A DNA stretch of 63,325 bases from Thermodesulfovibrionales bacterium (GCA_963715195.1 CAVQRT010000035.1:1-63325); one strand, 5' to 3'; shown: positions 2,568 through 31,905, counted from the stretch's first letter. Notes: a model not told the origin generated them from the sequence alone. Numbers and translations are program-made.

Positions 2568-3122
2568 ATGACACGCAAAAGAGGCTCAGCCGCTGTGCTG
2601 GTGTTTTCCTGCACTGTGGCGTTCCTTCTTTTCTTCATGTCTGTACAATCTTCTCCGCTTCTCGGACAGATAAAAGACCGTGTTGTTGCATACGTCGACA
2701 ATACCGCAATTATGCTCAGCGAGCTCGAGATCCAGTATGCTGATACCCTGAGGACCATCCCTAATGTGACAAGGGAGGAGGTTCTGGAAACGATGATCAG
2801 CAGGACCATTCTCCTGAGGGAAGCCAGAAAATTGAAGCTTGAAGCGCCCTCTGAAGAAGAACTGCTGAGCGAATACATTGACCTGAAAATCAGGGCGTTC
2901 ATTCGTCTTCAGGACGAAGAACTGAAGGACTTTTATACGCAGAATGCGGAAGAATTTCAAGGCAGGGAATTTGAGGAAGTGAGGGAGGAAATTGACCAGT
3001 ATCTGATCGAGAAAAAACTGAATGAGCAATTAAAGACTCATCTCAAAAAGTTCCGGGACGAGTCCTGCGTGCAGATTCAGCTTCATGAAACAGACACGGC
3101 ACCCGAAGGGGACCTGCCATAA
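2568..3122 (+). CDS. SurA N-terminal-domain-like periplasmic chaperone
   Basis: Signal peptide followed by DRVVAYVDNTAIMLSEL, typical of the SurA N-terminus; directly downstream of the Omp85 gene. Confidence 0.65.
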   Translation: MTRKRGSAAVLVFSCTVAFLLFFMSVQSSPLLGQIKDRVVAYVDNTAIMLSELEIQYADTLRTIPNVTREEVLETMISRTILLREARKLKLEAPSEEELLSEYIDLKIRAFIRLQDEELKDFYTQNAEEFQGREFEEVREEIDQYLIEKKLNEQLKTHLKKFRDESCVQIQLHETDTAPEGDLP

Positions 3123-3334
3123 AGTGTAGTTGCCACCACTTGACCTGGCAGACAATGTCAGGCCGGGGGTGGAGTCCTTCATCCTACCACACTCTGAATA
3201 TTTTTCAGTAAGTGCAGAGCAGAACTGGAAATCCGCAATATTATAATAGAATAATGTTTGTGCACTATTTTATGTTCCTAAATTGATGCTCTTGGCTATT
3301 TTATAAATATTCAATACAATATCAAGTATGAGTC

Positions 3335-4330: not shown

Positions 4331-4403
4331 CCAAGTATGGTAGATAAGAAAGTATAATTGAGCAATATATTATCTTATTAAACATTTTTCAGCCGCACTA
4401 GAA

Positions 4404-9575: not shown

Positions 9576-11082
9576 TCAGTGTCTACCCCCGGAAAGATTT
9601 TTTTCGAAGACCTTGCGGAAATGAAACCCATAAATAGAGAGGGTAACGGCCTGAGGAAGAAGGCGGGGACGGCTGATCAGAGTCCAGAGCAGCAGTCCCC
9701 AATAGTAGAATCGCTCTTTCCCGATTAACCCAAGAACGACAATTGACCTGAAGAACGCTCCGAAATAGTGCGGCCGGAACCGAAAGGCCTTCTTCTTTTT
9801 ACTGGGAGGGGATATACTCCCTAAGAAATGTTCTGAGCCTTTCATAGTAGTGCCTTGGTGAATACAGTGTGCTGAGGACCCTTCTTGTAGCCGCTTATCA
9901 GCAGGTTATAGTCCATCTTGGGGATAAAGTTTGTCGCGAAATCCGTGTTGTTGCCTGAAGTCTCTTTCAGCAGCCGCTTCTCCTTCTTCAGTCTCTCGTA
10001 GAGTTGTGTACGCGGAAGGGCAGTGAGAATGCCGACCATGGCCGTGACGACGCCGCTTTTCTGGATGAACCTGATCTGGGTATCGAAAATCGTAAGGGGG
10101 TCGTTGTCAAAACCGACAATGAATCCTCCCTGCACCTCGAGGCCGGACTTCTGTATATTCCTGACACTGGCGAGGAGATCGCGGTTCTTGTTCTGGAATT
10201 TGTTGCATTCCGCCAGGCTCTGCTCATGGGGGGTCTCAATGCCGACAAAGACGACATCGAATCCTGCCCTTACCATCATCTCCATCAGGTCTTTATGGTC
10301 GGATAGTTCTATGGATGCCTGCGTATTGAAGGAGAAGGGATGCTTTCTCCATGTCCATCCAATCGATGATGGCGGGGAGGACTTCCTCCTTCAGCTTTTT
10401 CTTGTTCCCGATGAAATTGTCGTCTACGAAGAAGACCTGGCCCTTGAACCCTGTTGCGTACACACTTTCGATCTCCCTGATAATCTGGTACTTGTCTTTT
10501 GTGCGCGGCGTGCGGCCGCAGAGCAGGGTAATATCACAAAACTCGCAGTTAAAGGGACAGCCCCGGGAATACTGGATATTGATCGAGGCATAGTGCTTCA
10601 TGTTAATAAGCCCCCAGAGCGGAATGGGTGTCTTCGGTATGTCTGCCCACTGATCAGTGGTATAGAAATGACCTGCATCCCCTTTCTCGAAATCTGTTAA
10701 GGAAACGGGGCAGGGTGATTTCGGCTTCGTTCAGCACCAGATGGTCTACCTCTCCGAACGCTTCATATTCTGTCGTAAAAAGAGGACCTCCGGCGACAAT
10801 CCTGACGCCGAGCGGTTTTGCATCTCTGAATCACTTCTTTTACCGATTCTTTCTGGACAGACATCGCGCTTATAAAAACGAGGTCAGCCCACTTTATGGC
10901 CTCGTCTTCCAGGCTTTTCACGTTCATGTCGACCAGTCTTTTCTCCCAGTTTCAGGAAGCATTGCTGCAATGGTCAACAACCCGAGGGGTGGACTGCTCG
11001 CCTTTCTGTGAATGAATTTCAGGGCGTACCTGAAACTCCAGAAGGTATCCGGGAATTCAGGATAAATGAGGAGCGCTTTCAC
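9576..11082 (-). CDS. B12-binding radical SAM protein (DUF4070/HpnP-like family), several frameshifts
   Basis: N-terminal [14 protein letters not shown]…[21 protein letters not shown] (CxxxCxxC), [19 protein letters not shown]. Confidence 0.85.
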
Positions 11083-12838: not shown

Positions 12839-13045
12839 GGAGGCAAGTCATTGAATATAAAGAAATATGAGGAAAGAAACGGATACTCAAAGTGGGCAAT
12901 TTGCCTGAATCGAGAGGGAGTTATGACCGAAGCATAGTATAGGGATAATGCCAGTTATTTCTGGTAATCTACAGGAGACAGAATTGTTCGATGTATTAAC
13001 TACTATGTGAAACAAACTCAATACTTTTTACAGAGGGCACTAATT

Positions 13046-13231
13046 TTATTTACAGTATCCTATATAATCCCCATGCTTTAAATGTGCTTTCACCGCTGAC
13101 TCATCAACATGGATAGTTTTTCCTTTATGGCATATAGCAACTTTGTCCCTGGATTTAGGAACTTTGTCAATAACACATCCTATACATGAAAGCATTACAA
13201 GACAGATAATCGTTTTTATGAATAAATTCAT
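13046..13231 (-). CDS. Small lipoprotein with ICHKG…AHLKHGD..G.C motif
   Basis: 61-aa ORF, lipobox CIGC, RBS AAGGAGG. Confidence 0.65.
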   Translation of the reverse strand: MNLFIKTIICLVMLSCIGCVIDKVPKSRDKVAICHKGKTIHVDESAVKAHLKHGDYIGYCK

Positions 13232-13367
13232 GGAAGCCTCCTTATCGTGGGGCTGAAACTGTTTCTTATCGTTACAAAGCTATTTCATTGTAGCAGATTT
13301 TGCAGTTGTTTACTCCTGTAAATAATCGATAGCATTGATAAATTTCAGATGCGTTGACTTCTATGTG

Positions 13368-13622
13368 TTATCGTTTATAGTGTTGGTAGATTGAATACCG
13401 ACTAGGGCATTGACAGATATCTGTTTTGCCGTAAGAAAGGTTATAGGCGCAGTTATTTCTATTACTTTTCTTTTCTATAAAAAGACCTTTGTTCTTTAAC
13501 TTGCAATCAATAGAACATGTATCCCAATGGTTGTTCCCCATACATTCAAAATCGCAATGACATTTTGTTGTCATATTTTTAATTTTTTGACTTATTTTAA
13601 ATACGGTATTATCTTGTTTCAT
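13368..13622 (-). CDS. Small Cys-rich hypothetical protein
   Basis: 84-aa ORF with C..DF.C, C.Y…YG…C.CP.R pattern. Confidence 0.5.
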   Translation of the reverse strand: MKQDNTVFKISQKIKNMTTKCHCDFECMGNNHWDTCSIDCKLKNKGLFIEKKSNRNNCAYNLSYGKTDICQCPSRYSIYQHYKR

Positions 13623-13897
13623 AAAAACATAATACCAATTAAATTAACCATACACAAGAGCAAACCTGTTTTTTAAACCATTATTATGTGTCATATTGGC
13701 TGAACTATAGATTTCCCTGAGTTTATTTGTGAGTGTGTTTCATGCAGGAATCAACAGGGAATAAAAACATGAGATGTGCAGAGTACTATGTGTATTGAAC
13801 ACTTTGAAGAAATGCGTGTGATTATTTAGTCCACCTACAAGTCAACACACCGACACATCTCAAAGGGTAAAGATTACAGGTAGGAATATGCAAAGGA

Positions 13898-13920
13898 GGG
13901 GTAAGCAGTAAACTCACCCC
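13898..13920 (-). terminator. Probable intrinsic terminator after 13956-14183
   Basis: GGGGTGAG-7nt-CTTACCCC followed by TCCTTT on the minus strand. Confidence 0.55.
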
Positions 13921-13955
13921 TTTTAGTTTAAGATATTACTGTTTTACCGTCTCCT

Positions 13956-14183
13956 TTAAAAATTTGGCGAAAAAGAGTGCGTTTTCGGTCCGCCGCCTTG
14001 TTGGCACTTTGTCTCGCCAGTATATGTATCGGTAACACAAACACTGTAGGTCATACCACCACCACCGACTGCCACTGCATATCTCCCTGCGCCATTATCC
14101 GTTGTCGCTGCACCAAGAAGCATGAAAACAGTAGTTGCCGAAAGTACACCGATAAGAAAATTTTTCCATGAAATCTTTTTCAT
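13956..14183 (-). CDS. Small secreted hypothetical protein
   Basis: MKKISWKNFLIGVLS signal-like N-terminus, GRY…DT.TGE motif, RBS GGGAGG. Confidence 0.6.
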   Translation of the reverse strand: MKKISWKNFLIGVLSATTVFMLLGAATTDNGAGRYAVAVGGGGMTYSVCVTDTYTGETKCQQGGGPKTHSFSPNF

Positions 14184-14362
14184 TGCGTTAACCTCCCTTT
14201 CAAATAGAATTGACACCTTATGAAAAGGTATCCCTTGAATACATCAATTATATCAAAAACCTACAGGCACATTAGTTTCCGATAGAAATCTGCACCTTTT
14301 TAGCAAAGATTGCTTCTAACGAGTACAGGAAGTAATCTTCACTATATACTTCATGATTAAAA

Positions 14363-14905
14363 TCAGTGTCTTCTTTTACTTCTAATATATTTTAAAACTA
14401 CATAACTTATAAAAATAGTAATGACTAAAAAGAAAACGACATATTTAATCATACTTGTATCAATGCCTATATCTTTCAGACTGTGACCCCCTACATACCC
14501 TATCGAAACCATTACAGCAATTGTAAAGGTAACTGCAATAGCATCTGTTAAGAGGAATTTCAACGGGTGCATTCTCATAACCCCAGATACAAGAAAGATC
14601 TGTGCCCTTAGACCAAGAACATGCCTTCCAAGCAATATAAAGAAGATTCCTTTCTTCTGATATTTATTTTCGAGCATGGCAAGCCTTTCTGGGGATAATA
14701 TTTTTTGAAACCATCTGTGATATACAACCATACGACCAAATTTTCTGCCAAAAAGGTAAATGATAAAATCTGCTATTAGCACTCCTATATAAATGACAAG
14801 GAGGGCGGGTATCGCTTTGATCATATTGCGTTGAATTAAGAATCCACATAAGATGAATGTAGCATCTTCGGGGAAGGGCATCCCAACACCCCCGAGAATA
14901 AGCAT
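14363..14905 (-). CDS. DedA-family membrane protein (true start probably ~14958 via a frameshift)
   Basis: GMPFPED…G, D…Y.FGRKFG, GRHVLGLR motifs. Confidence 0.85.
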   Translation of the reverse strand: MLILGGVGMPFPEDATFILCGFLIQRNMIKAIPALLVIYIGVLIADFIIYLFGRKFGRMVVYHRWFQKILSPERLAMLENKYQKKGIFFILLGRHVLGLRAQIFLVSGVMRMHPLKFLLTDAIAVTFTIAVMVSIGYVGGHSLKDIGIDTSMIKYVVFFLVITIFISYVVLKYIRSKRRH

Positions 14906-15230
14906 AACAAAGAGTGCTATATAAGGTGAGTTTTCTACTAACGTTTCGATTTTCTCATACCTTATTTATTACCAGTAGAACTATTTGCAATTATATCAGG
15001 TTCTAACGGTGAGGACTTCAGGAAGTAGTTCGCAGATGGAAGCAATCTAAGAATGTGCGGCTTACTATGTGTTATACGCAGTTTTTATTTTTCCAAGCTT
15101 GAAAACCGTAAAATTCAACACTACTTCAATAAATACGCACTTCAGGTGTCTCTCTTGGTTTGCGAACTACACCTACAAGTCAACAAATTTGACAACATGC
15201 AGGGAGTGTCGATTATTGGTAGAAACAGGC

Positions 15231-15260
15231 AAAAAAAGGGCGAGATATTTACCTCGCCCC
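15231..15260 (-). terminator. Intrinsic terminator of mipA-like gene
   Basis: GGGCGAG-8nt-CTCGCCC followed by T7 on the minus strand. Confidence 0.8.
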
Positions 15261-15300
15261 GATATCTGGAAACAGCCAGTGTTAACGCGCGCTGTTTCTT

Positions 15301-16164
15301 TTAGAAATTATAGACAGCAACAACACCCCCAAGGTACTGGTTCGCATCACCTTCGTCATCTACGACCGGGCTGTCCTTTGCATCGCTCACGAGTCGTTTG
15401 TACCCAAGTGCACCAATAAAGCTCCACTGTTTGTTGAGCACATAATTAAGGCCTGCCCGCACCCCGTAGTCCTTGATACCAGAGTCGGCCTTGAACACAT
15501 CAAGTCCACTTCGTGCCGCGTTATCTTTGTCTATCTCGAAATAGGCCTCCATGTAATCATCGCTGGCATACGTTGTTGAAGCACTGAGCGAGAGCATGAG
15601 TCCTGTATCCAATGGTATTGAATATCCGGTCACAAGGGTAACGAGCAGACCTTCATGCCCATCAGCCACATCCTGTGCCGCTTCAATCATCGCGGTCCAT
15701 TGGTCAATCTTTATTCCAGCAAATGCTCCCACCTCTAAGGCGCTATCAACTTTACGAAGATCGTCAACCTGCTTATCTTCAACATCATTACGCTCGATTC
15801 GATACCGTAAAACCGGCCCTACACTCCACATCTTACTTTCAAGAACGTTCGCTCTTATTGTCGTGCCCAGCAACCCGATGTACTGGCCAGTTTTCGAGTC
15901 TATTCTTGCAAAGGGGATGGGCACAGCGGTATAGTCGTTCGATCCTTCATAATCCGGGATTACTCCTATTCCCAAGCCGAGTTTGGTAGCTATTTTCGCC
16001 TCCTGCTCACCCACAGTATGGGACAATGTAGTTTCCATACCAGGGTCCCAATCCATATCTGTTGCACCTGCATTTGCCTGAGAGTACATACTTAGTGTCA
16101 GCATAACTGCAAACAAAGAAAACAGACACACTCGGAACATCTTGAATCCCTCTTGTTTGTTCAT
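15301..16164 (-). CDS. MipA/OmpV-family outer membrane protein
   Basis: PDYEGSNDY…P.P, YM..YF.I, DAKDSPVV, C-terminal Y.F. Confidence 0.88.
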   Translation of the reverse strand: MNKQEGFKMFRVCLFSLFAVMLTLSMYSQANAGATDMDWDPGMETTLSHTVGEQEAKIATKLGLGIGVIPDYEGSNDYTAVPIPFARIDSKTGQYIGLLGTTIRANVLESKMWSVGPVLRYRIERNDVEDKQVDDLRKVDSALEVGAFAGIKIDQWTAMIEAAQDVADGHEGLLVTLVTGYSIPLDTGLMLSLSASTTYASDDYMEAYFEIDKDNAARSGLDVFKADSGIKDYGVRAGLNYVLNKQWSFIGALGYKRLVSDAKDSPVVDDEGDANQYLGGVVAVYNF

Positions 16165-16304
16165 TGTTCAATCTCCTTATCTTTGGTTGTTTTTTCCCGT
16201 CTCTTTATTCCTTATTTTTTATTCAAACAGTGGCTTTTTCATCTCCTGCCTTTGAAAAATATTGATGTATTTACGCTGTTCACACTTAAATCCATTTATC
16301 CTAA

Positions 16305-16320
16305 AGCAATAATAATACCA
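16305..16320 (-). promoter_or_regulatory. Sigma54 (-24/-12) promoter of mipA-like gene
   Basis: TGGTATTATTATTGCT; exact IHF consensus TATCAATGAGTTA at 16338-16350; inverted pair CGGGCAAAATACC (16374-16386) / GGTATATTGTCCG (16398-16410). Confidence 0.7.
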
Positions 16321-16648
16321 GAGTAAGAAATACTATTTATCAATGAGTTATATACTACGGAGAGCACATTATTCGGGCAAAATACCATATTCATAGGGGT
16401 ATATTGTCCGACTTGCTTTGTATCTATTGTCTTTTTCTTGATTTCCATTTGTAAGCTACATATTCTTGTCCAATTGATTTTTTGCAGAGTACAGTAAGAA
16501 GCAAACAGAGGACATAAACCTTATATGGTGCGTGTTCCTATGTGAAGGTTGTTTTAATCAAGAAAGCTACTATTATTTATTTCTGCTCAAATCATCAGTA
16601 TTAAGATTTTTGAAAACCCACGAAATGTACATTATTTTTCTTTTATAC

Positions 16649-19306
16649 TCACACTTTTCGTCTAATCCATTTATCAATTTCTACTGCAAAAATAATTATC
16701 ATCGATACCACAAGCACTTCTCCCCACTCAATCATTGCCAAAGGAACGGTTCTGAATACCCACTGAAGAGCAGGCACATATAGGACAGCAAGATGAGCAA
16801 AGATGGAGGCAAGCATACCATAAAAAAGAAAGGGATTACTTATAAGGCTCATACGGAATATCGATCTTGTCTCGGAACGAGAGTTCCATGCTTGGAAAAA
16901 CTGAAAAAAGACCATCGTGGTAACCGCAACAGTTCTGGCCTGTTCCAGAGAATCTCCTGATCTTAGTGCAAGAATGTAGTTTCCGATAACTCCAAGTGAG
17001 ATGATAGAACCCACAAGAACAGTCCTCTGGAGAAGGAGCTTAGACATAAGTCCTTCCTGTGGCGATCTTGGAGGTTTATTGATGATCCCTTGTTCTCCTG
17101 GCTCGAATGCGAGGGCAAGAACCTGCAAGCCGTTTGTTACCAGATTTATCCAAAGTAGCTGTGAAGGAAGATACGGGAGGGGAAGTTTTAGCAGTTGTGA
17201 GATTATGATGGATAATATTGCAGCAATGCCAGTTGGAATAAGGAAAAAGATTACTTTCCTAATATTTTCAAACACAATCCGGCCTTCCTCTACTGCATGG
17301 AAGATACTTGCAAAATTATCGTCTGCAATCACCATGTCAGCAGCTTCCTTGGCAACATCTGTACCTGATCTGCCCATAGCAACTCCGATGTGGGCAGCCT
17401 TGAGTGCTGGTGCATCGTTAACGCCGTCACCTGTGACTGCCACTATCTCATTATGTTTTTTCATCTGCTGAACAATACGCAGTTTATCCTGTGGAGCTAC
17501 ACGGGCATAAACTGATGTTTGTTGCACTTTATAGAAAAGTTCATCATCGCTTATAGCCTCAAGCTGCTTCCCTATCAATGCGTTGGTTTCCTCTTCCTGT
17601 ACGATTCCAAGCTGTCTTCCAATAGCTACTGCGGTGATTGCATGGTCTCCTGTAACCATAACTGTCCTTATGCCAGCCTTTTTACATCCATCAATTGCAT
17701 GCTTTACTTCTTCCCTCGGCGGGTCGATCATGCCCTGTAACCCAGTCAGGATGAGACCGGATTGTATATCCTGGTGTGTAATCGCTTCTGTATCGTCAGG
17801 CATCTCTTTGTATGCCATCGCAAGAACTCGCAAACCCTGTTTTGCCAATGTATCTGCAAACTTGATGAAATCTTTTCTTATAAGATGTTCACTTATAAGG
17901 CAGGCTGTACACATATCAAGAAGTTTTTCAGCTGCGCCCTTGGCAAAAATGATCTTTTTGCCTTGATACTCATGCAGGGTTGCCATGTATCCTCGGTCAG
18001 ATTCAAATGGGATGATACCAAGCCTTGGATAATTCTCTCTTTCTGCTTCCGGGTTCAGCCCGGCTTTCATGGCAGAGACGATGAGCGCGCCTTCTGTAGG
18101 ATCACCATCGACCCTGAACTGACCCTCTTCTTCATAGATGTCAGACTCGTTGCATAGCAACCCTATGCGAAACACGTGCAGAAGCGTAACTAATTCATTT
18201 GGTTCCACAGGCATCTTGTCGTGAAGTATTTCTCCCTGCGGTTCATAACCGCTACCGGTTATCTCATAGGTATGCTCTCCGTCATATACAAGCAAGACTG
18301 TCATTTCATTTTTAGTCAGAGTACCTGTCTTGTCAGAGCATATGACAGTTGTACTTCCTAAGGTCTCAACGGTCGGGAGATTCCGTATGATCGCGTTTCT
18401 TTTAGCCATTCGTGCTACCCCGGCAGCCATTGCAATCGTTACTACAATTGGAAGCCCTTCTGGGACAGTTGCAACAGCGGCAGCAACTGCAGTCATAAAC
18501 ATATCTTTTATACTTTCTCCTGTAAGTATCCCAAAAATAAAAACAGCAACAGAAGCTGCCAAAACAAGCAAACCTATCTGTTTCGAAAACTTATTAATCT
18601 TTTCCTGTACTGGAGCTTTTACAGGACGTACACCTTTAAGCTCCTGGGCAATTGTCCCTAAGATGGTTGTTGTTCCCGTATTCACAACGATACCTTTTCC
18701 CCTGCCAGTCACTACAATTGTTCCCATGAAGGCCATATTTGTCTGATCACCAGGGGTAAGATTTGCACTTTGAATGGATAGTGATTTTTTTTCTGCAGGA
18801 ACTGATTCACCGGTCAGCATTGCTTCTTCAACCTTTAATTCCAGTGTATGAAAAAGCCTTAGGTCAGCCGGTACTTTAGATCCAGAGCTTAGGAGCACAA
18901 TATCTCCGGGCACCAATTCTTCACTGTCTATCTCCCGTTCTTTTCCATCTCTGAGAATCCGTGCTTTCGGTACCACCATCTGCTTTAAAGCTCTTACACT
19001 CCGTTCAGCTTTATATTCCTGTAGATATCCAATTACCGCGTTAAGGACTACAACTGACAAAATAACTGCCATGTCAATATATTCTGAGAGCAGAAAAGTA
19101 ACAAATGATGCGATAAGGAGAATATATATGAGCGGGCTGGTAAATTGATGGATGAGTATTTTCAGTCTACTTATCTGCTCATGTTCTGCAAGTTTGTTTG
19201 GACCATATTTTGGAAGGCGAACTTTAGCTTCAGCATCGCTAAGACCTTCATGTGATGAGTCAAGATTGCCGAATACTTCTTCTATTTCTGACCGATACCA
19301 GTTCAT
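16649..19306 (-). CDS. Cation-transporting P-type ATPase (type II), copy 2
   Basis: Intact 885-aa ORF with TGES, PEGL, DKTGTLT, DPPR, GDGVNDAPAL; paralogue of 4404-7068. Confidence 0.95.
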   Translation of the reverse strand: MNWYRSEIEEVFGNLDSSHEGLSDAEAKVRLPKYGPNKLAEHEQISRLKILIHQFTSPLIYILLIASFVTFLLSEYIDMAVILSVVVLNAVIGYLQEYKAERSVRALKQMVVPKARILRDGKEREIDSEELVPGDIVLLSSGSKVPADLRLFHTLELKVEEAMLTGESVPAEKKSLSIQSANLTPGDQTNMAFMGTIVVTGRGKGIVVNTGTTTILGTIAQELKGVRPVKAPVQEKINKFSKQIGLLVLAASVAVFIFGILTGESIKDMFMTAVAAAVATVPEGLPIVVTIAMAAGVARMAKRNAIIRNLPTVETLGSTTVICSDKTGTLTKNEMTVLLVYDGEHTYEITGSGYEPQGEILHDKMPVEPNELVTLLHVFRIGLLCNESDIYEEEGQFRVDGDPTEGALIVSAMKAGLNPEAERENYPRLGIIPFESDRGYMATLHEYQGKKIIFAKGAAEKLLDMCTACLISEHLIRKDFIKFADTLAKQGLRVLAMAYKEMPDDTEAITHQDIQSGLILTGLQGMIDPPREEVKHAIDGCKKAGIRTVMVTGDHAITAVAIGRQLGIVQEEETNALIGKQLEAISDDELFYKVQQTSVYARVAPQDKLRIVQQMKKHNEIVAVTGDGVNDAPALKAAHIGVAMGRSGTDVAKEAADMVIADDNFASIFHAVEEGRIVFENIRKVIFFLIPTGIAAILSIIISQLLKLPLPYLPSQLLWINLVTNGLQVLALAFEPGEQGIINKPPRSPQEGLMSKLLLQRTVLVGSIISLGVIGNYILALRSGDSLEQARTVAVTTMVFFQFFQAWNSRSETRSIFRMSLISNPFLFYGMLASIFAHLAVLYVPALQWVFRTVPLAMIEWGEVLVVSMIIIFAVEIDKWIRRKV

Positions 19307-19692
19307 AGATTTACATTAAGTATCTGCTTTTTATAATTTGTTATCAAATATATTTATCAAACTGACTGATATTTTGTCACAATAATGATTCCGTATGCTA
19401 TCGTAAATCTGTTCTTCAAAATATATCCCGATCAATAGCTCAATCATTAAGATCTTGTTTATTTAATATCAACAATAAAGAAATCCCCATTTCCAAATAT
19501 AATCGTAACAATGAAAATGCGTTATGCTGTGCATGTTTCAACTGGAAATAAACGATTTTCGGAAATTGCAAGGGTGTAGATTTCTATGTGTAAGTTCTTC
19601 ATCAAGATGCAATTGAGTTTTTTTATGAGAAATCCGGAGTGCTCTACACAATCTTCAATCTCCAATAGGGGGAATTGAATTGCTTGTTGATT

Positions 19693-20832
19693 TTAGAGGA
19701 AACGTGTTTTCACCAAGATAATCCCAAAGACAATTAAGAACATCACCCTCCAGACGCGGTCAATCTTGCGTGCTAAGGCTTCCTTCTCAATACGGACGAG
19801 AAATGATGTCATGGTCACCATGAAAAGAGATGACAGGATAAGCAACGTATCAGCCAAGATGAAGATGTCCAGACGAGTCAAGTAAGGTACTCGGGGCACT
19901 TGGGATTCGACAACGAACCGATAGGCGATCAGCGTCAGCATGGCGGTGGTGGCTACCCCAATCTTCGTCCCGGCATTCGTTGGGTCGATGAGAAAGACCG
20001 ACCATGACATCAAAACGATCAGCACGAGCGGGAGGATGATCTTCCAAATATAATATTGTATGTGTCTTTTAGCTGTGAACTCGAAGGCATACCCGGCAAC
20101 ATCATACCCGGGGATTATGGTATAAGGCAGTTCCTTCGTCTCAAACTCGGTAATTTCCCAGTCAGGGAGGGAGATATTCTGGGCAATGCCGGCGCCATAC
20201 TCCAAGCCAATATCAAGAAACTTTTGGTCAGTTACAAAAAGTATCTGGTCGGTCGTATATACTGGAGCTACAAGATGCAGCTGGAAGACATGCGTGTCAA
20301 GCGGAAAATCATGTAGGTTCAGGGGCTGGGAAAAAGGCCCCACGTATCTCTGCCGGTAAGTCACCGTCCCATCGGGACTGACCTCAACTTCTTCGGGCAT
20401 TGTCTTTCTTATCAGGCCGATCTCATTAGCGATCTGAACGCGGGGGTCCCAAATATCTGCAAGCTTGTATTTACGAAAATCGCTACCCCGATATGCCAGT
20501 CTGTTGTCTTTCCATCTCAGGGCTACGAATACGTTGGCAACAAAATTCTGTTGTGCACTGTCAATGTTGTCGATATCGAGTACCCAGATAGCAACAGAAA
20601 CAGTCGTTGGCCCGGCTTTAGCGTCTGGGCGGACAAATTGCCGCTGCTGCGCAAAGGCTACTTCTGCATATAAAATTCCAAAGAAAATACAGAAAAGAAG
20701 AATAAACTGCGAGAGATTTCTCCAGATATACCTTATCTCAATGATGTCTGTTTGATACATCGTTGATTGCTTTATACTCTTATCACCCACATACAATTTT
20801 CTCAATAGGCGTAACATCGTTTTCAGTGTCAA
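19693..20832 (-). CDS. Prokaryotic pentameric ligand-gated ion channel (GLIC/ELIC-like)
   Basis: W.D.RL, IWDPRVQIAN, Pro-loop L.DFPLD, pre-M1 R…YYIWKIILPL, four TM helices, M2-M3 loop VPRVPYLT.LD; true start may be downstream of the track start. Confidence 0.88.
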   Translation of the reverse strand: MTLKTMLRLLRKLYVGDKSIKQSTMYQTDIIEIRYIWRNLSQFILLFCIFFGILYAEVAFAQQRQFVRPDAKAGPTTVSVAIWVLDIDNIDSAQQNFVANVFVALRWKDNRLAYRGSDFRKYKLADIWDPRVQIANEIGLIRKTMPEEVEVSPDGTVTYRQRYVGPFSQPLNLHDFPLDTHVFQLHLVAPVYTTDQILFVTDQKFLDIGLEYGAGIAQNISLPDWEITEFETKELPYTIIPGYDVAGYAFEFTAKRHIQYYIWKIILPLVLIVLMSWSVFLIDPTNAGTKIGVATTAMLTLIAYRFVVESQVPRVPYLTRLDIFILADTLLILSSLFMVTMTSFLVRIEKEALARKIDRVWRVMFLIVFGIILVKTRFL

Positions 20833-21118
20833 TTATATCATAACGAAAGAAGTGCTCGAAAAAGTCTAATTCCTTAACTTTGATTCTGTTAATAACTCAG
20901 GTTAAGTTGTAATCTTGAAAGAGGCTCCATTATGTAAAAGCATCTTGTTCTGAGTATTTCCAAAGGCAATATTGTCTGCTTAAAAAAGGCAATCGACTCT
21001 GTGTGTTTGGGTGACAAATACGCGTCGCTAAGAATATTCTGAACTACGGACTTCTATGTGGAAGGCACACTTTGTAAAATTTTCCCAGGTTTGAAAGCCT
21101 ATTAATTATAATAGGGAC

Positions 21119-21670
21119 ATGAAAGGTAAATATACCCTTCCTGAGAAATTTAGCATCAGATTCGATAAGACAGATAGGCATACCTTTCTGCTCAGCACGC
21201 AACAGATTATTCCCATCCCGGTAGAAAAAGCTTTCTCTTTTTTTGAAAAACCGGAAAATCTCCCTGAGATCACACCTGAATGGCTGAATTTCAGATTCAA
21301 GATGAAAGGCGCTCAAAGTAAAACATATAAAGGTGCAGAGTTTGATTATACGATCAGATGGTTCGCGATAAGAATACAATGGCATACGAACATATCAGAA
21401 TACCGTCGTCCTGAGATGTTCACTGATGTGCAGGTCAGGGGACCCTATGCTCTATGGAAACATCTTCACACCTTTGAACCGGTTCCTGAGGGAACACTTT
21501 TAAGGGATTTTGTTACTTATCGAATTCCTTTTGGATTTTTCGGTAACATCTTGTTCGGCACAATAATCAGAAAGCAACTCCGGGACATTTTCTCATATCG
21601 GGCATTTCGTATCGCTGAGTGGGCGAGTGGGACATTGAAGAGGAAACTCCCATCTAATCCTCATTCCTGA
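21119..21670 (+). CDS. SRPBCC-family protein
   Basis: F.FF..PENL..ITP, F.D.Q.RGPY..W.H.H.F. Confidence 0.85.
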   Translation: MKGKYTLPEKFSIRFDKTDRHTFLLSTQQIIPIPVEKAFSFFEKPENLPEITPEWLNFRFKMKGAQSKTYKGAEFDYTIRWFAIRIQWHTNISEYRRPEMFTDVQVRGPYALWKHLHTFEPVPEGTLLRDFVTYRIPFGFFGNILFGTIIRKQLRDIFSYRAFRIAEWASGTLKRKLPSNPHS

Positions 21671-21682
21671 TATAATGAAGCC

Positions 21683-22582
21683 ATGAAAATAATGATCTGC
21701 GGCGGTGGGGGTTTTATCGGCCAGCGTCTTGCGGGATTTCTTCTTAATAAGGGATACGAAATCATTATTCTCGACAGAAATAAATCAAGGATATCATCTC
21801 CAAAATTAAAATCATTTGTAGCTGACCTTCTCAAACCAACCCTTTTTAAAAAAGAATGGTTTTCGAATATAGAAGCGGTCATCAATTTAAGCGGGAAGGA
21901 TGTCCTTAAACTCTGGACAGAAGATTACAAAAAAGCAATATGGGAAAGCCGTGTCACCGTCAATAAGCATCTTGTTGATTTTCTCTCTTCTTTAGATAAC
22001 AGGCCAAAGACTTTTATCTCGGCTTCTGCCACTGGCTATTACGGTGATAAGGGAGAAAACGAGGTCGATGAGAATGCAAAAAACGGAAAGGGATTCCTGG
22101 CAGATGTCTGTGTTGCCTGGGAGAGAGAAGCACTCCGTGCAGAGACGCTGGGAATGCGTTCTGTTCAGGTGAGAACGGCACCCGTGCTTGATAACAAAGG
22201 CGGCTTTCTCGAAAAGCTCCTGAAGTCTATGAAATTCGGGGTTACCGTACAGTTTGGATCAGGAAAGAACTGGTTTCCCTGGATCCATATGAAGGACCTC
22301 ATCAGTATTTACGAGGCAGCAATTACTCATGAGAGCCTTTCAGGTCCTGTGAATGCCTGTTCACCCGAGCCAGTCCGATTTCATTCACTGCTCAACCAAA
22401 TCACGCAATGTCGCAAAGCTGTTATCATTCCTTTCCCGGTTTCCGTGTTCAGGCTTTTTGCAAAAGAACTTGCTGATGAGTTGACAAACAGCCAGAGGAT
22501 ATTACCTATAAAACTGCAAAATATTCAGTTCCGTTTTGTCCACGGCAACCTGAATGAGGCATTGAAAGCTGTATTAACATGA
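21683..22582 (+). CDS. TIGR01777-family NAD-dependent epimerase/oxidoreductase
   Basis: GGGGFIG, INLSG, SASATGYYG, GFLA.VC..WE, PWIH..D. Confidence 0.9.
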   Translation: MKIMICGGGGFIGQRLAGFLLNKGYEIIILDRNKSRISSPKLKSFVADLLKPTLFKKEWFSNIEAVINLSGKDVLKLWTEDYKKAIWESRVTVNKHLVDFLSSLDNRPKTFISASATGYYGDKGENEVDENAKNGKGFLADVCVAWEREALRAETLGMRSVQVRTAPVLDNKGGFLEKLLKSMKFGVTVQFGSGKNWFPWIHMKDLISIYEAAITHESLSGPVNACSPEPVRFHSLLNQITQCRKAVIIPFPVSVFRLFAKELADELTNSQRILPIKLQNIQFRFVHGNLNEALKAVLT

Positions 22583-23040
22583 TCGATAAGGAGATGTTCA
22601 TGCTCTTATTCGAAGGCGTTGTATCCGGATTAGCAGCAGGATCCCTGATGGGTCTTATATCCCATGTAGGCTTCAAAGTTGGCATATTCAAATCAAGCCT
22701 TTTCATCATTGACGGTACTTTTGTTCAACACATCCTACGACTGAAACCCAAAGCAACACAAGCTGTGATTTTCGGAATTCCTGTTCACCTGATCACCAGC
22801 ATGTCCTTTGGTATTGGATATGTAATTCCTGTAACCATTTTCAAACTTGATCTGCTCAATGGATGGTTGATTGTGGTTTATACGTTTATTCTCTGGCTCT
22901 CGATGCTTTTTGTGGCGCTTCCGACAGCAGGACAGGGATTCGTCGGGAGAAAATTAGGTTCTCTTACGTGGCTTGAGCAGATGGTACTTCATGTTGTTTT
23001 TGGCTTTGGGTTATGGGGATTTCTTTTTCTTCTCCATTGA
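22579..23040 (+). CDS. Membrane protein (4 TM)
   Basis: Hydrophobic ORF, ATGA-coupled to the epimerase, with H…G motifs. Confidence 0.65.
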   Translation: MIDKEMFMLLFEGVVSGLAAGSLMGLISHVGFKVGIFKSSLFIIDGTFVQHILRLKPKATQAVIFGIPVHLITSMSFGIGYVIPVTIFKLDLLNGWLIVVYTFILWLSMLFVALPTAGQGFVGRKLGSLTWLEQMVLHVVFGFGLWGFLFLLH

Positions 23041-23874
23041 GAATAGAGACCTTTTTCTTGTAACCGCATGGACAATCAGGAATGTATTCCACTCTTTTTG
23101 TGTTCTTCCCCATGTACCATCTTTGTTTTGTTTTTCCTTTAAATAAACGAATGCCCGTTTCAATGATGCGTCTGATTGCTTAAAATTCAGATGACCAAGA
23201 GCATTGACTGTCTGGTAAAAAGGTATTTGCTTGGGCCAAGACCCATCCGTTCTCTGCATTTTTCCTAGTTTTGTTACATACATTCTGATTACTCTACTCT
23301 TTGCGTATTCCGGGTGTACAACAAATGCCCTCAGAATATTGTTGGAACAAGACCACGTACACCATTTGCCGTTTCTTTTTTCTCCGATGTTGCGGAGCAT
23401 TTCATATACGCGAATCACTCTTGAATCATTTCCCAAACCGAAAATAGTTGCAAGGAAAAGAGAAGCACCCTTTACGAAATGGTCAGGGCAACCAGCAGAA
23501 AAGGGAAGGCTATGCAGATTTCGGATAGAGACCCTTTCAGGCTGCACAAGTGATATCCTTCTTTCTTCGGTAAAGGCTTTCTGTGAAAGCAGCCAATCGA
23601 GACCTTTTTCAATCCGTACATCTTTATGCCTGATAGTAAGATGCAACCCAAATAACTTGTGAATGGTATGTATTATGGAGTCGTCCCATGAACCATCTGC
23701 AAGTTGTCCTGAAAACAAGGCACTGACTGTTTCACGAAAATCGTTTCTCCATCTAGGTGTCTCATGCTGCTGTAACCATTTTCGTCTTGCATAAAGAGCA
23801 GCCGGTGTCTTGCTGCAAAGGAAAATGTTCAGTGGATTATACTGTAAAAAGGGAAATAATGCTTTATGTTGCAT
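23011..23874 (-). CDS. Prenyltransferase/squalene-oxidase-repeat protein
   Basis: Three Q..DG.W (QW-like) repeats; likely start MQHK at 23874. Confidence 0.65.
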   Translation of the reverse strand: MQHKALFPFLQYNPLNIFLCSKTPAALYARRKWLQQHETPRWRNDFRETVSALFSGQLADGSWDDSIIHTIHKLFGLHLTIRHKDVRIEKGLDWLLSQKAFTEERRISLVQPERVSIRNLHSLPFSAGCPDHFVKGASLFLATIFGLGNDSRVIRVYEMLRNIGEKRNGKWCTWSCSNNILRAFVVHPEYAKSRVIRMYVTKLGKMQRTDGSWPKQIPFYQTVNALGHLNFKQSDASLKRAFVYLKEKQNKDGTWGRTQKEWNTFLIVHAVTRKRSLFSMEKKKKSP

Positions 23875-24262
23875 ATTGGAGACTAGCCTCAATTCGTTTG
23901 ATAGCGATCCAGCAGATAAAAAGATAGGGTAATGCGATAGAAGGAACTTCGAAGAATATATTACATTTGAATTCATCAACTGGCTCTATCCTGTGACCGG
24001 TTGCACGGATTCCCCAAATTTTCCATGACCAGTACCTTTGATCATCAAAATCAGTTATAACGAATGGCAGCCATATTCCGAAAAGTGTTTTTACCCTGCC
24101 GCGAGTTCCTTTTCTGATATATTTGTCAACAGAGTCGACAGCAATGATTGATGGTCCCCATTTCGGCCAGCGCGTTGTATCAGTTATGATGTCCCAAACA
24201 TCCTGAGAGGGCACATTGAGCGTCTCCCCTATCGCACTAAATGAAAAAGAAAACTTAATCAT
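23864..24262 (-). CDS. SRPBCC/polyketide-cyclase-like protein
   Basis: VWD..TDT..WP.WGPS; W.W…G..ATGHR.EP. Confidence 0.8.
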   Translation of the reverse strand: MIKFSFSFSAIGETLNVPSQDVWDIITDTTRWPKWGPSIIAVDSVDKYIRKGTRGRVKTLFGIWLPFVITDFDDQRYWSWKIWGIRATGHRIEPVDEFKCNIFFEVPSIALPYLFICWIAIKRIEASLQYAT

Positions 24263-24434
24263 AATGAATTATTAATATTATTCACATGAAATCGGCAGGC
24301 AGAAAAAACGCATATCCTCCGATAGAAAAACCTTGGCCTTATTAGTATTATGTAGTAGTATGTGTAGATTTTGACAGTAACTTAATTGTCAACTGATGCT
24401 AGCGCAGACGTTCTTCGCCTTTTATAACAAGCCA

Positions 24435-24616
24435 GTGAAACTCCCACGCGGCAAGCCGCGGGGCATCTAAGGCACAGCTTAAAGATGCTGTGCAGGCCAT
24501 GGGCATACCCAATGGCCTTTGAGGATAAGGGAGCCTTCGCGTCTCCCTTATAACCCTCTGCGAAAGGCATGCATTCATCCCCGTGTCAAGACACGGGGCA
24601 TTCTGCAAAGGCCTTC
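24435..24616 (-). mobile_element. Non-autonomous IS200/IS605-family element (PATE/MITE-like), 182 bp
   Basis: Subterminal hairpins at both ends, insertion 3' of TTAC, right end TCAC, no target duplication; its removal restores …GFVY|WLVIKGEERLR* of the globin gene. Confidence 0.85.
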
Positions 24617-25477
24617 GTAAACAAAGCCAATCACTAAAATTGATGCGATTAGATAAACCATCATTTCGGATTGTTCATGTTTCATTGTTGCGATCATCGT
24701 CTCCCTGATTACCGTAACAAGTGCAACACTTACAAATATGCTAATGCGAAACTTTCCACCCTTGAGATGTGATATCTCCGTGTTCATAAGCTCTATCATG
24801 ACCCATATGATGAGGAGTGAACCAAGTGAGGTGATAATGCCCTTCTCAAGATCGCCCGTAAAAAGTTGTCGTACGTCGGAAATAAAAAGACCTATGGCAC
24901 CCACTGTCAGTCCTATCAACGCAAATACGAGAATGAGATTTGCACTCTGGAGGAATTTTTCTGAGAAATCTATCATCGTGTTTTTGATTCGATACATGGA
25001 AGAATAGCTTCGTATTTCTTCTTCAATATATGATGAGGTCATCACATCAAGATTGATATCGAGAATCTTATCAAAGACAAGAATGTCAGCAATTGTTTCC
25101 TCTTCATCATCTTTTGCTTCACAAATTATTTTGACACAGAGGGTCCTAATAATGTTCACAGCCCTGTTTAAATAGTGCGCATCAATCCCATTCTTGACAT
25201 GAACGATACCGATTCTTATTAATCTGTCATAATATGCATTATCATATTTTCCCTCAAACATCGCTAAAAACCATTTCTTCTGCGATTCGAATAAATGTAC
25301 ACGTCTTGTCTCTTCATTGAGGAGTCGCATACCTATTTTTGTGCTCATGATATAAGAACTAAGCGCACTAGCGACATCTTCGACATGCTCTGCCATAACA
25401 GACCTCAATTGAGCGAGTCTCCGTTCGTCATCTGCAGCAAAGCTATACCCTTCTTTAATTTCCTTGAATGATCTCAT
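24575..25477 (-). CDS. Protoglobin/globin-coupled sensor with PsiE-like TM domain (original stop at 24399 before the insertion)
   Basis: W…F.G.YD..Y..L.RIG..HV..G globin signature, K.LDINLD, followed by 4 TM helices. Confidence 0.85.
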   Translation of the reverse strand: MRSFKEIKEGYSFAADDERRLAQLRSVMAEHVEDVASALSSYIMSTKIGMRLLNEETRRVHLFESQKKWFLAMFEGKYDNAYYDRLIRIGIVHVKNGIDAHYLNRAVNIIRTLCVKIICEAKDDEEETIADILVFDKILDINLDVMTSSYIEEEIRSYSSMYRIKNTMIDFSEKFLQSANLILVFALIGLTVGAIGLFISDVRQLFTGDLEKGIITSLGSLLIIWVMIELMNTEISHLKGGKFRISIFVSVALVTVIRETMIATMKHEQSEMMVYLIASILVIGFVYEGLCRMPRVLTRG

Positions 25478-25803
25478 TTTTCACCTACTGTACTATCTTA
25501 TCCATACGTCTTATTAAACCACTTTTGAAGCACTTTTCACCTTAAAGGTATTTTCAGAGCCATACAAAACAATATAATCCTGCTGTTTGATTATAACAAA
25601 TGTGATATTAGAGAATTATTTTTTCCGATAAAAATCTGCACCTTTTTAATTAAAATATTTTAAAAGTTTTTACATGTGAAATATTGCCTGCAAAAGATAG
25701 CCCTTCCATACAATACTTCAGGAAAATATCATCCCGGCATATTTCCAAAAAACACACCCGGATACTCTGTATTTCACAAATCGCCAGGAGGCATAAAAAG
25801 ACG

Positions 25804-26727
25804 CTACCCTATCTTATCAATAATAAAAGAGGCAATGAGAATGAGTGAAGAAAGCATCTGGAACTGAATGGTCCCTGCCTGTGCAGAAATTATCGCGACC
25901 GGATCAGCGTGAGTCTTCCACATGTGTACTGTTGTTTTGATTGCAACCGGCACGGTCAGGAGAATAAGGAGAGACCACCGCGGGTAGATATCGTAAATGA
26001 TGAGGAAAAGGGCAGAGAGATAAAAGAGTATCATCAGGATTGCATATCCGTACCTGGCAGCGCCTGTGCCGATTCTCACCACAAGGTTCCTTTTGCCGGC
26101 ATCCCTGTCCGCTTCGTAGTCCGGAAATTCATTGATCCACAGAATATTTGCGACTGCAAACCCGTTGGGGACCCCGAGGAGGAGGAACTCCGGACTGAAC
26201 ATGCCGAAATTCACATAGCCGATTCCAAGTGTAATGAGGGGTCCGAACGAGAAAAAGATAATCAGCTCACCAAGGCCTCTTGACTGAAAAGAAAACGGCT
26301 TCAGAGAGTAGATGATGCCGCAAAGCCCTCCGGCAGTCCCGATGAGCACTACATGGGGACGGTCTGCAAAAAACAGCACTGCACCTGCGGCAGCCGCCAT
26401 TATAAAAAACACTACCGACATATGCAAAAATGCCCGTCTCGACAATATATGCTCAAGCCGGCTTCTGCTTCCACCGCTGAAAGGAGTGGCGAACCTGTTA
26501 ATCCTGTCACTTTCCTCCCAGTCAAAATAGTCATTCAGGGTATTTGCCCCGAGGTGGAGAAAGAAAACCCCGAGCACTCCTAAGAAGACGTTCAGGAAAA
26601 TAAATTCTGTGCCGTAGACACCGCACCACACAGCAGCGAGCACCGCCGGGAGCACGGAGGCTGATACAAAAGGAAGCCTGGTGCCGGCTATATAGGATTT
26701 TTTCTTCGAAAGACCCTGTGATGTCAT
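25804..26727 (-). CDS. menA: 1,4-dihydroxy-2-naphthoate prenyltransferase (UbiA family)
   Basis: N..NDYFD, PFSGGS, GLGE, NEFPDYEAD…GKRNLVVR. Confidence 0.8.
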   Translation of the reverse strand: MTSQGLSKKKSYIAGTRLPFVSASVLPAVLAAVWCGVYGTEFIFLNVFLGVLGVFFLHLGANTLNDYFDWEESDRINRFATPFSGGSRSRLEHILSRRAFLHMSVVFFIMAAAAGAVLFFADRPHVVLIGTAGGLCGIIYSLKPFSFQSRGLGELIIFFSFGPLITLGIGYVNFGMFSPEFLLLGVPNGFAVANILWINEFPDYEADRDAGKRNLVVRIGTGAARYGYAILMILFYLSALFLIIYDIYPRWSLLILLTVPVAIKTTVHMWKTHADPVAIISAQAGTIQFQMLSSLILIASFIIDKIG

Positions 26728-31071: not shown

Positions 31072-31092
31072 TGAGAATACCCGGCCTGGATC

Positions 31093-31905
31093 TCAGAAAA
31101 CGGAAACCACAATTTCAGAGAGTGCAACCAGCATTTCACGGTCATCGGTAAGGGGGGATGAAACAGCCACCTCGCAGGCTTTCTTCATATCAATCCCAGC
31201 ACTATTCATTTTTGCAGCGTGGATGAGCAGGCGAGTACTTGCCCCCTCTGTGAGACCCCTGTCCTTGAGGTTTCTCGTCTTCATTCCGAAATATACCAGT
31301 TTCTCTGCAAGATTCTCTTCGATTCCCGATTCATGGATGAGAATTTCTCTTTCAACCTCTTTTGAAGGATAGGAAAACTCTATTGCCATAAAACGCTGCC
31401 TTGTTGACTGCTTCAGATCCTTCAGTACGCTCTGGTATCCCGGGTTATATGATATTGCGAGCATAAACTCGGGGGCTGCCTTCAGTATCTGCCCCTTTTT
31501 CTCTATCGGGAGGATACGTCTGTCGTCTGCAAGTGGGTGAATTACAACGGTCGTATCCTTTCTCGCCTCGACAATTTCGTCAAGATAGCAGAATGCCCCT
31601 GCCTTCACAGCCTTTGTGAGTGGCCCGTCAACCCAGACCGTTTCCCCTCCCTTCACCAGATATCTTCCCACAAGGTCTGACGCGGTAAGGTCGTCATGAC
31701 AGGATACTGTGATCAGAGGCCGTTCCAGCTTCCATGCCATATATTGCATAAAACGTGTCTTCCCGCATCCGGTAGGCCCCTTCAGAAGAACAGGGATATG
31801 ATTTCTATAGGCAGATTCAAAAAGACTCACCTCATTTTCCACCTCACGGTAGTAAGGTTTCTCCGTAACGAGAAATTTTTCTGTTTTCTTGGCTTTTGTT
31901 TTCAT
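31093..31905 (-). CDS. CbbQ/NirQ/NorQ-family MoxR AAA+ ATPase
   Basis: [38 protein letters not shown]. Confidence 0.93.

Follow-up and report, generated by a model that had tools for sequence, protein, structure and literature searches.

The 17-bp motif that recurs in the spacers of the accessory island proved to be the unit of a chained site, in which a 7-bp core lies between an arm and its inverted counterpart; the site borders accessory modules exchanged among the genomes of one Nitrospirota family and is probably the crossover site of a Xer-like tyrosine recombinase acting in the style of integrons. The stretch analyzed, hereafter the window, comprises 63,325 bp from a Thermodesulfovibrionales bacterium (GCA_963715195.1, CAVQRT010000035.1:1-63325) and belongs to a 2.8-Mb bin (G000). 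The site is neither dif/pdif nor attC, and its best reading is that of a predicted tyrosine-recombinase cassette system. An earlier note on this DNA had suggested a pdif-module-like or new tyrosine-recombinase cassette system; the second part of this suggestion gained support, since homology breakpoints lie at the motif, site-seeking elements use it and its distances to start codons vary, whereas the pdif/Xer part did not. Of the ways in which bacteria stack single accessory genes, integrons and pdif modules have been studied best, and the site in the window looks like a third type of site for the same task in an uncultured lineage. No published description of it was found in the literature searched, and supplements on SE and RIT elements may list related elements.

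Organization of the site in the window

The simple site consists of an 11-bp arm (consensus GTGYKRAYTW), the 7-bp core next to it and the inverted arm. Its dyad axis is odd, which gives a 7-bp center; the main core is CTATGTG, a fixed and asymmetric center, and a second core, GTAGGTG (CACCTAC on the other strand), was found in most of the inverted copies. Simple sites are chained with a period of 45–47 bp, the spacing of simple-site pairs in the bin peaking at 45 bp (26 pairs) and 46 bp (39 pairs) against a median count of 9, and each module end has a second, inner site 45 bp inward. The exact CTATGTG core was present in 65 of the 85 strong right ends versus 4 of the 19 left ends with no preceding right end, the share among right ends being biased by an arm model trained on CTATGTG sites.

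All 12 copies quoted previously (seven on the plus strand and five inverted) were read exactly as given, and the match of 26 of 27 bp between 14276–14302 and 25622–25648 was reproduced; as sites, eleven of the copies are real, whereas that at 19633 is misregistered. In leave-one-out 17-mer scoring, ten of the copies had no more than 71 matching positions in the 2.8-Mb bin, the copy at 16528 was weak (537 positions) and that at 19633 was at background level (20,798 positions). An arm model built from mobile-element insertion targets, with a training set free of any sequence from the window, placed 11 of the 12 copies within the top 1.5% of genome positions; the copy at 19633 failed in the quoted register, and the adjoining cores 19623 and 19642 scored well. 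A 43-bp model grown from the seven plus-strand copies and iterated on its own matches gave 40 sites at a score of at least 17, versus 0–2 in five column-shuffled controls.

In the window, seven co-oriented CTATGTG sites part modules of one or two genes and form a direct-repeat array (13003–21054). The leftmost of these sites is part of a two-tier cassette end on the plus strand at 12946..13020 (simple-site cores 12958 and 13003, the latter CTATGTG), and the cargo genes that follow, up to the ion channel homologue, all lie on the minus strand. A 61-aa ORF with a signal-peptide-like N-terminus (13046..13231) and an 84-aa Cys-rich ORF (13368..13622), neither with a Pfam family, flank a plus-strand chain at 13258..13378 (cores 13269, 13316 and 13361, the last CTATGTG). 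The next chain, at 13685..13941 and without assigned strand, contains six simple sites (cores 13696, 13741, 13786, 13832, 13877 and 13923, with spacings of 45, 45, 46, 45 and 46 bp), of which 13786 is CTATGTG and 13832 is CACCTAC, i.e., GTAGGTG on the minus strand. It is followed by an 86-aa ORF with no Pfam family (13956..14216), two unstranded simple sites at 14268..14344 (cores 14279, CCGATAG, and 14326, CAGGAAG) and the gene of a DedA/VTT-domain membrane protein (14363..14905). The unstranded chain at 14961..15234 (cores 14972, 15019 (CAGGAAG), 15065 (CTATGTG), 15124, 15170 (CACCTAC) and 15216) precedes the gene of a MipA outer-membrane protein (15301..16164), and the plus-strand chain at 16434..16600 (cores 16445, 16492, 16538 (CTATGTG) and 16582) precedes that of a P-type cation ATPase (16649..19306), a copy of which, 83% identical, is located on contig C30. 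Further plus-strand chains were found at 19482..19660 (cores 19493, 19539 and 19584 (CTATGTG), with 19623 and 19642 off period) and at 20949..21120 (cores 20960, 21009, 21054 (CTATGTG) and 21102), on either side of the gene of a pentameric ligand-gated ion channel homologue (19693..20832). An unstranded accessory block follows at 21119..25477 (SRPBCC, epimerase-DUF1731, squalene-cyclase-like, SRPBCC and protoglobin-PsiE genes), and a single unstranded simple site lies at the right island edge, at 25614..25648 (core 25625, CCGATAA; the right-hand partner in the 26 of 27 match). Of the weaker copies reported near the left island edge, that at 3260 belongs to a degenerate but real two-tier end on the plus strand (3211..3276; weak, scores 12 and 7.0), with an inner core at 3222 and the outer core lost, whereas that at 4382 fell short of the score of a site. 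Near 4382, module homology with relatives begins at 4365–4375. No recombinase gene was found within the window.

Six gene-less units of 165–166 bp were detected, in which the left 7-mer was variable and the right one fixed, and the 45–46-bp segments reassort independently at both ends; 49 of 75 pairs shared the 45-bp left segment but had ostensibly unrelated upstream DNA, at most, since no gaps were allowed in comparing them and an indel is the sole difference in one pair or more. NIMEs (neisserial intergenic mosaic elements) and BIMEs likewise consist of short modules assembled into mosaics, with a repeated motif, itself a target of mobile elements, at the joints, and the gene-less units and the independent reassortment would both suit selfish intergenic repeats of this kind, with 45-bp modules built by element-borne recombinases and genes caught by chance. 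Such an origin is highly improbable: single genes recur together with their own site in differing contexts, the sites are located at core/accessory junctions, and, unlike NIMEs and BIMEs, the junctions in the window have the arm–core–arm form of a tyrosine-recombinase site, serve a tyrosine-recombinase element in that capacity and lack a REP-like hairpin.

Homology switching at module borders and spread of the site

Comparison with related genomes located the homology breakpoints at the motif core. Site-bearing neighbors shared a single flank, with a switch of homology at the core, in all six informative pairs, the choice of which, from 92 distinct sites, relied on sequence beyond the motif itself; in one pair, an identity of 96.5% started at the C of CTATGTG. 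The module 13034–13360 recurs in two relatives (87% identity) and terminates at the core, and a block similar to 21104–24264 (73–76%) is present in two relatives in other contexts. At two dispersed loci, the boundary relative to an empty relative lay 40–100 bp beyond the core and not at it. None of the sequencing runs covered half of the region, and four runs, consisting of assembled contigs from related strains, contained no joint at a site.

Copies of the motif are also present outside the island, with the site occurring about 40 times in the bin and concentrated in low-GC accessory regions. It was detected in 39 of the 56 genomes of the Nitrospirota family; a complete genome (G211) had 21 site matches, and on a complete chromosome the sites were dispersed all around and on both strands. 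Viral contigs gave no matches to three patterns. It should be noted that the window contig looks like that of a second organism within the bin. The surA gene was considered as a fixed insertion locus and rejected: apart from omp85, seven genes of the window, galT and ubiA among them, were tested, and none adjoined surA in 29 loci of relatives.

Alternatively, an abundant DNA-binding protein of the host, either a regulator or a nucleoid protein, may use the arm–7-bp–arm chains as operators, binding every 45 bp close to accessory genes. For the three mobile elements considered below, the chains would then be landing marks, and the reshuffling of flanks would be no more than a by-product of the element recombinases. 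The long right end is usually upstream of an opposite-strand gene and travels with it, which would suit an operator, as would the dispersal of sites on both strands of the complete chromosome and the fact that a dedicated recombinase was not found. Nevertheless, this explanation is rather unlikely, since a fixed asymmetric center, a homology switch exactly there and the gene-less units, in which only the left 7-mer varies, would not be expected of operators. As the earlier note had observed, distances to start codons also vary, from about 130 to about 380 bp between core and start in the window (about three-fold), and the copies, concentrated in low-GC accessory regions, do not behave as transcription-factor or sigma-factor sites, which would lie upstream of co-regulated core genes at a fixed distance from the start.

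Mobile elements at the site and candidate recombinases

Three unrelated mobile elements insert at the site, each at its own fixed offset, which makes it likely that an integron-like system of gene shuffling cuts and joins DNA at the motif. The first, a 2.2-kb element with two recombinase genes only and 12-bp terminal inverted repeats, inserts directly after the core; a Tfp-, Srap- or TnpC-like gene was not seen in it. Its flanks fitted a second arm model, trained on CTATGTG sites of the bin, at an exact 7-bp gap, with scores above zero in 40 of the 54 flanks on the left and 41 of the 66 on the right; random 11-mers scored above zero in 4.7% of cases, and the other gaps between 0 and 15 gave no more than 11 flanks each. 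CTATGTG was the left-junction 7-mer of this element in four family loci; the left 7-mers were varied, and the right 7-mer was CGCGGTG in 15 of the 32 family right ends. In one relative (G225), the element occupies the orthologue of the site 13258..13378, which is empty in its sister genomes G227 and G013. The link between element and site emerged only after the element ends were aligned; with the long-site model, seven loci of relatives had no site closer than 1.5 kb to the element. The family is abundant (at an E-value of 1e-40, 7,992 of 8,000 scored candidates were accepted, a set that includes more distant recombinases). Plasmids contained nothing similar to the pair protein at an E-value of 1e-60.

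The second element, a lineage of group II introns, inserts inside the core (5|2) in 25 of 25 copies, namely, after GTAGG (18), CTATG (3), CTGTG (2), TCAGG (1) and GCAGG (1), and removal of the intron restores CTATG|TG for two copies in the bin. The third, an IS91 element with a recombinase, inserts 2 bp past the core; its end lay 9 bp after the arm in 23 of 34 distinct flanks, versus at most six at any other gap. Neither element end was found, as an exact pattern, in 18 of the 40 site-positive family genomes, and the pair element was absent from the complete genome with 21 site matches.

A dedicated recombinase was not found among the 14 PF00589 matches in the bin, which were XerC, XerD, phage-type integrases or fragments, and broken pairs; two broken copies of the pair are located on contig C14. 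Several candidates were rejected. An integron-like SAM_4 integrase adjoined the site in one of 30 loci, and several site-rich genomes gave no match to the query used for it. A divergent recombinase-fold protein of 364–375 aa, present in four of five site-rich relatives, was a TOBE-like fusion, presumably a TunR/ModE-like regulator, with no nearby site, and was absent from the bin. The phage-type integrases of four genomes (G211, G151, G212 and G004) had no consistently adjoining site in 20 regions. The best candidate enzymes are the two-recombinase pair and the IS91-borne recombinase, which would act in trans; both recognize the arm.

On the cassette-system reading, a module would extend from a left end with a variable or CACCTAC outer 7-mer to a right end with the fixed CTATGTG and would integrate as a circle into any arm–core–arm target with a core ending in GTG or TG. 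The 7-mer of the target would stay at the left junction, as in the two-recombinase element and SE/Tn554-type elements. The inner site of each end, 45 bp further in, would serve as an accessory and sometimes as a crossover site, and repeated insertion at CTATGTG would produce the direct-repeat array 13003–21054. More tentatively, the 45–46-bp chains with their fixed 7-mers CTATGTG and GTAGGTG might be a recombination standard shared by sediment Nitrospirota and probably other anaerobes, i.e., a genome-wide cassette economy, neither integron nor Xer/dif, in which element-borne recombinases would act in trans as wandering integrases and group II introns would home to the cores. The site is the natural target of an abundant two-recombinase family, which makes the reaction of this element directly testable, and a small tyrosine-recombinase pair with a degenerate arm–7-bp–arm target and about 3 bp of core homology would be of interest both for mechanism and as a tool.

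Relation to dif, attC and SE-type elements

In the pdif modules of Acinetobacter, as in the window, short tyrosine-recombinase sites, frequently paired in inverted orientation, delimit accessory modules, and these form multi-module islands with no dedicated integrase gene (PMC13141974, PMC12907356); dif/pdif sites consist of a XerC box, a 6-bp spacer and a XerD box (PMC13141974). Unlike pdif, the site in the window has a conserved 7-bp core between two like arms, its junctions are mostly direct repeats, and a second site lies 45 bp inside each end. A candidate host dif was found at the GC-skew switch (G000:C7:154504), and its inner sequence is also present in one relative (G010). Its spacer is 6 bp versus the 7-bp core, and its arms do not fit the arm model (−3.5 and −4.3), with the limitation that it lies on contig C7 and the window contig possibly belongs to another organism.

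Recombination of the sites as non-canonical dif modules by host XerC/XerD, perhaps with an accessory factor, is improbable. Both proteins pass the NCBIfam cut-offs in the bin, and no other recombinase was shared by the site-rich genomes that were checked. The XerD arm of the candidate dif is similar to CTATGTG-WA-N-K, its XerC arm has 8 of 11 bases in common with the copy at 25625, and the converging inverted ends recall alternating C/D modules. However, the odd dyad axis and 7-bp center differ from the 6-bp dif/pdif spacer (PMC13141974), and the dif arms score negatively. The reading of CTATGTG as a Xer box (the XerD arm) was abandoned on three grounds, namely, the fit at a 7-bp gap, the arm scores of dif and the insertion offset of the elements: since these insert directly after CTATGTG, it is the center of the site and acts as a core between two inverted arms.

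Integron cassettes, attC sites and CALINs are similar to the window in their single-gene modules, direct-repeat arrays, small site at each junction and lack of an integrase beside the array; unlike integrons, the modules keep long upstream regions, and the sites occur genome-wide in 45-bp chains. The sites are not attC: the motifs RYYYAAC and GTTRRRY were both present in none of seven sites, and no consistent fold signal of an attC-like hairpin was detected (z-scores from +1.6 to −2.4 versus base shuffles). A single-strand hairpin of the attC or CTX type was likewise rejected, with no excess of own over cross pairing for four arm pairings in the expected register (p = 0.16–0.84); off register, two shifts had p = 0.003 and 0.016 among 20 tests. 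No IntI was found: the four longest recombinases of the bin, which is incomplete for the organism of the window, were all below the TIGR02249 cut-off, and the remaining PF00589 matches were genes of the pair or fragments. Sites of the attC type are parasitized by group IIC-attC introns (PMC3001079) and group IIB introns occur at integrons (PMC7923331); both attC and the site in the window are targets of group II introns and other site-seeking elements, and the parasites of the latter mirror the known attC parasites.

SE, GInt, Tn554 and RIT elements leave the bases of the target at their left junction and bring a footprint of their own to the right one (PMC10214605, PMC9345347). This junction logic was seen for the two-recombinase element and would, by inference subject to the training bias noted above, apply to the cassettes. 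Unlike in those elements, the footprint is 7 bp and not 6 (PMC10214605, PMC9345347), and whereas they are described there as carrying three or four recombination genes of their own, the cassettes encode no recombinase and the associated element has two genes.

Site structure and genomic setting

All 12 copies of the 17-bp motif quoted in the earlier note were present as given there, and 10 of them scored as true motif far over background (leave-one-out scoring), whereas the copy at 16528 was weak and none was found in that register at 19633. The motif is part of a real feature, larger than was reported at that time: when extended, it formed a site about 75 bp long that was found 40 times in the bin with a score of at least 17, compared with 0–2 in five shuffled controls. 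The site was composed of simple sites, in which an arm (about GTGYKRAYTW) and its inverted counterpart flank a 7-bp core. Another simple site was located 45–46 bp upstream of the CTATGTG core, and 33 of 92 sites had a third, with a CAGGAAG-like core, about 46 bp downstream. For an arm model whose training set was limited to targets of mobile-element insertion, the spacing of simple sites in the bin was most often 45 or 46 bp (26 and 39 pairs, respectively, against a median of 9), and one chain in the window had its cores at 13696, 13741, 13786, 13832, 13877 and 13923. The copies at 13832 and 15170, previously listed as inverted, had the identical two-tier structure with the core GTAGGTG. No sign of a selected hairpin was found at the site.

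The motif copies were in the spacers of a low-GC accessory stretch from surA (2568–3122) to a UbiA-family gene (25804–26727), with one or two genes between successive copies (short ORFs, DedA, MipA, a P-type ATPase and a ligand-gated channel homologue), hereafter modules; no recombinase gene was found among the 57 ORFs scanned in the window. The homologue of pentameric ligand-gated ion channels (19693–20832) was single-gene cargo between two sites, and further homologues were present in the bin and its relatives. The BamA-like (107–2571), P-type ATPase (4404–7068) and radical-SAM (9576–11050) genes were broken by frameshifts; since one-base differences were found at 11720 in related contigs of three runs, many of these breaks are probably assembly errors. 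A short palindrome-rich stretch (24430–24605), where contig depth in sediment runs was very high (maximum 217 at 24586–24591), probably belongs to a small mobile element of wide occurrence, either as its end or as what is left of it. An AAA ATPase gene (CbbQ/NirQ/NorQ) and one for a VWA protein, at 28816–31905, adjoined the nuo-like operon.

Core genes of the bin were duplicated on the window contig (C35) at 66–72% nucleotide identity, namely, the nuo region (second copy on contig C33, 72%) and omp85-surA (contig C14). Compared with same-genus relatives, the C14 copy of surA had an identity of 59–75%, and the window copy 48–54%. This duplication, together with the greater distance from same-genus relatives, suggests that the window contig probably comes from a second organism within the bin. 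Contig C15 of the bin carried a selenocysteine tRNA gene (L085:2842–2935).

Insertions and breakpoints at the core

Three kinds of mobile elements inserted into the site: a two-recombinase element, a group II intron lineage and an IS91-family element. Contig C14 contained two broken copies of the first, a 2.2-kb element of two tyrosine-recombinase genes between 12-bp terminal inverted repeats; the two recombinases had 31% identity with each other, and both were under the XerC/XerD cut-offs. In the loci compared (80 from metagenomes, plus those of the family), the flanks of this element fitted the window arm when the gap was exactly 7 bp (40/54 left, 41/66 right), and a second simple site was 45–47 bp off in 24 of 65 right flanks, compared with about 2 at control offsets. 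The junction 7-mers included CACCTAC, CAGGAAG, GATGAAG, GTAGGTG and CTATGTG; the left one was CTATGTG in four family loci, and the right one was CGCGGTG, with the last three bases as in CTATGTG, in 15 of 32 family ends. In the relative G225, the element directly followed CTATGTG, and the same site, which ends the first module of the window, was empty in G227 and G013. The element junctions identify the 7 bp between the arms as the exchange region, which CTATGTG is able to fill. Within the order, 41 of the 317 genomes carried the terminal repeat.

The intron lineage (Rfam) inserted after the fifth base of the core, and the flanks of two copies in the bin rejoined to CTATG/TG. The bases before the intron in 25 family copies were GTAGG (18), CTATG (3), CTGTG (2) and, in one copy each, TCAGG and GCAGG. 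Two ORF-less copies were located within cores on contig C16, and two units with reverse-transcriptase ORFs, nested or tandem, were about 90 bp from a site (C25:57996–61830; L078 9000–12830). This homing parallels that of group IIC-attC introns, which target attC (PMC3001079). The IS91-family element also carried a recombinase gene (Y2_Tnp + PF00589); of its 34 distinct flanks, 23 placed its start 2 bp past a core. That the site is an operator and these elements its parasites is unlikely; breakpoints also fell at the core.

Among the 92 distinct sites compared, identity switched at the core in six of six pairs related on one side only, which were chosen by sequence outside the motif. Contig C23 had 96.5% identity with C11/C12 starting at the C of CTATGTG, with unrelated sequence upstream, and the window module 13034–13360 had an 87% copy in G013 and G227 that stopped at the core and was followed by a different right flank. 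The 45-bp segments on either side of the core also reassorted, at neighbouring cores (at most 49/75 pairs, an upper bound from ungapped comparison); an origin of the sites as selfish mosaic repeats is nevertheless very improbable. At two empty loci in relatives, the whole site was absent and the boundary was 40–100 bp past the core, which argues against a one-step model. A repeat of about 160 bp with many copies in the genus of G227 was located at the edge of an accessory insertion (L138:17614–17800, G227:C14).

Comparison with known systems and putative mechanism

The arrays resembled integron-less cassette arrays and pdif modules in their working, but the defining tests of both were negative. 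Neither an attC hairpin at the site nor IntI in the source bin was found. The dif and pdif sites consist of a XerC box, a 6-bp spacer and a XerD box (PMC13141974), whereas the centre of this site was 7 bp, between two like arms. The arms of a candidate chromosomal dif of the bin (C7:154504–154531, at the GC-skew switch; inner sequence also in G010) did not fit those of the site. The Xer-box reading was therefore not upheld, and non-canonical Xer sites are decidedly unlikely. Of the earlier proposal of a pdif-like or new tyrosine-recombinase cassette system, the second part was retained: on balance, the site rather probably belongs to an undescribed system of this type. No published description of the site was found in the literature searched, which lay mostly outside subscription journals.

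Module right ends were nearly always CTATGTG (65 of 85 strong ends, a count biased by training), left ends without a right end in front had varied 7-mers (CTATGTG in 4/19), and six gene-less units of 165–166 bp had the same asymmetry of variable left and fixed right. This matches the junction pattern of SE and Tn554 elements, whose left junction retains bases of the target and whose right junction has those carried by the element (PMC10214605 and PMC9345347). Modules may be non-autonomous elements; they would integrate at arm-core-arm targets and stack at CTATGTG. At five positions in the bin (C16:10487, C17:4696, C26:11570, C26:23427 and C30:59119), CTTCTAT followed a right end, and in some of these CTT was just before a CTATGTG that was whole or nearly so, as though the crossover had added three bases.

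The recombinases of the bin included XerC and XerD, along with integrases of phage type and the broken pairs. Of 26 genomes with an end of the pair element or the IS91 element, 22 had sites, as did 18 of the 31 that lacked both ends, a comparison confounded by kinship and genome size; in G211, the pair element was absent and the IS91 element present. A conserved protein of 364–375 aa in G010, G211, G212 and G151 (L172–L175), adjoining sulfite-exporter-like genes, combined a degenerate tyrosine-recombinase domain with TOBE-like domains and is presumably a TunR/ModE-type regulator. In G212, a 427-aa integron-integrase-like recombinase (L431:147–1430, contig C33) had no site of this type within 10 kb.

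Distribution of the site

Of the other 56 genomes in the family, 39 were matched by a profile built from 31 sites. This profile gave no match at E 0.001 in 150 genomes of other families in the phylum (31 candidates scored per genome), and only weak matches (E 0.004–0.04) in three of five chosen genomes of other families. Beyond the family, a GTAGG-class profile had 6 and 2 matches in two genomes of one other family and 0 in two others. In the complete genome G211, it had 29 matches. The sites in G211 were on both strands and scattered along the chromosome, chiefly where core genes meet accessory ones.
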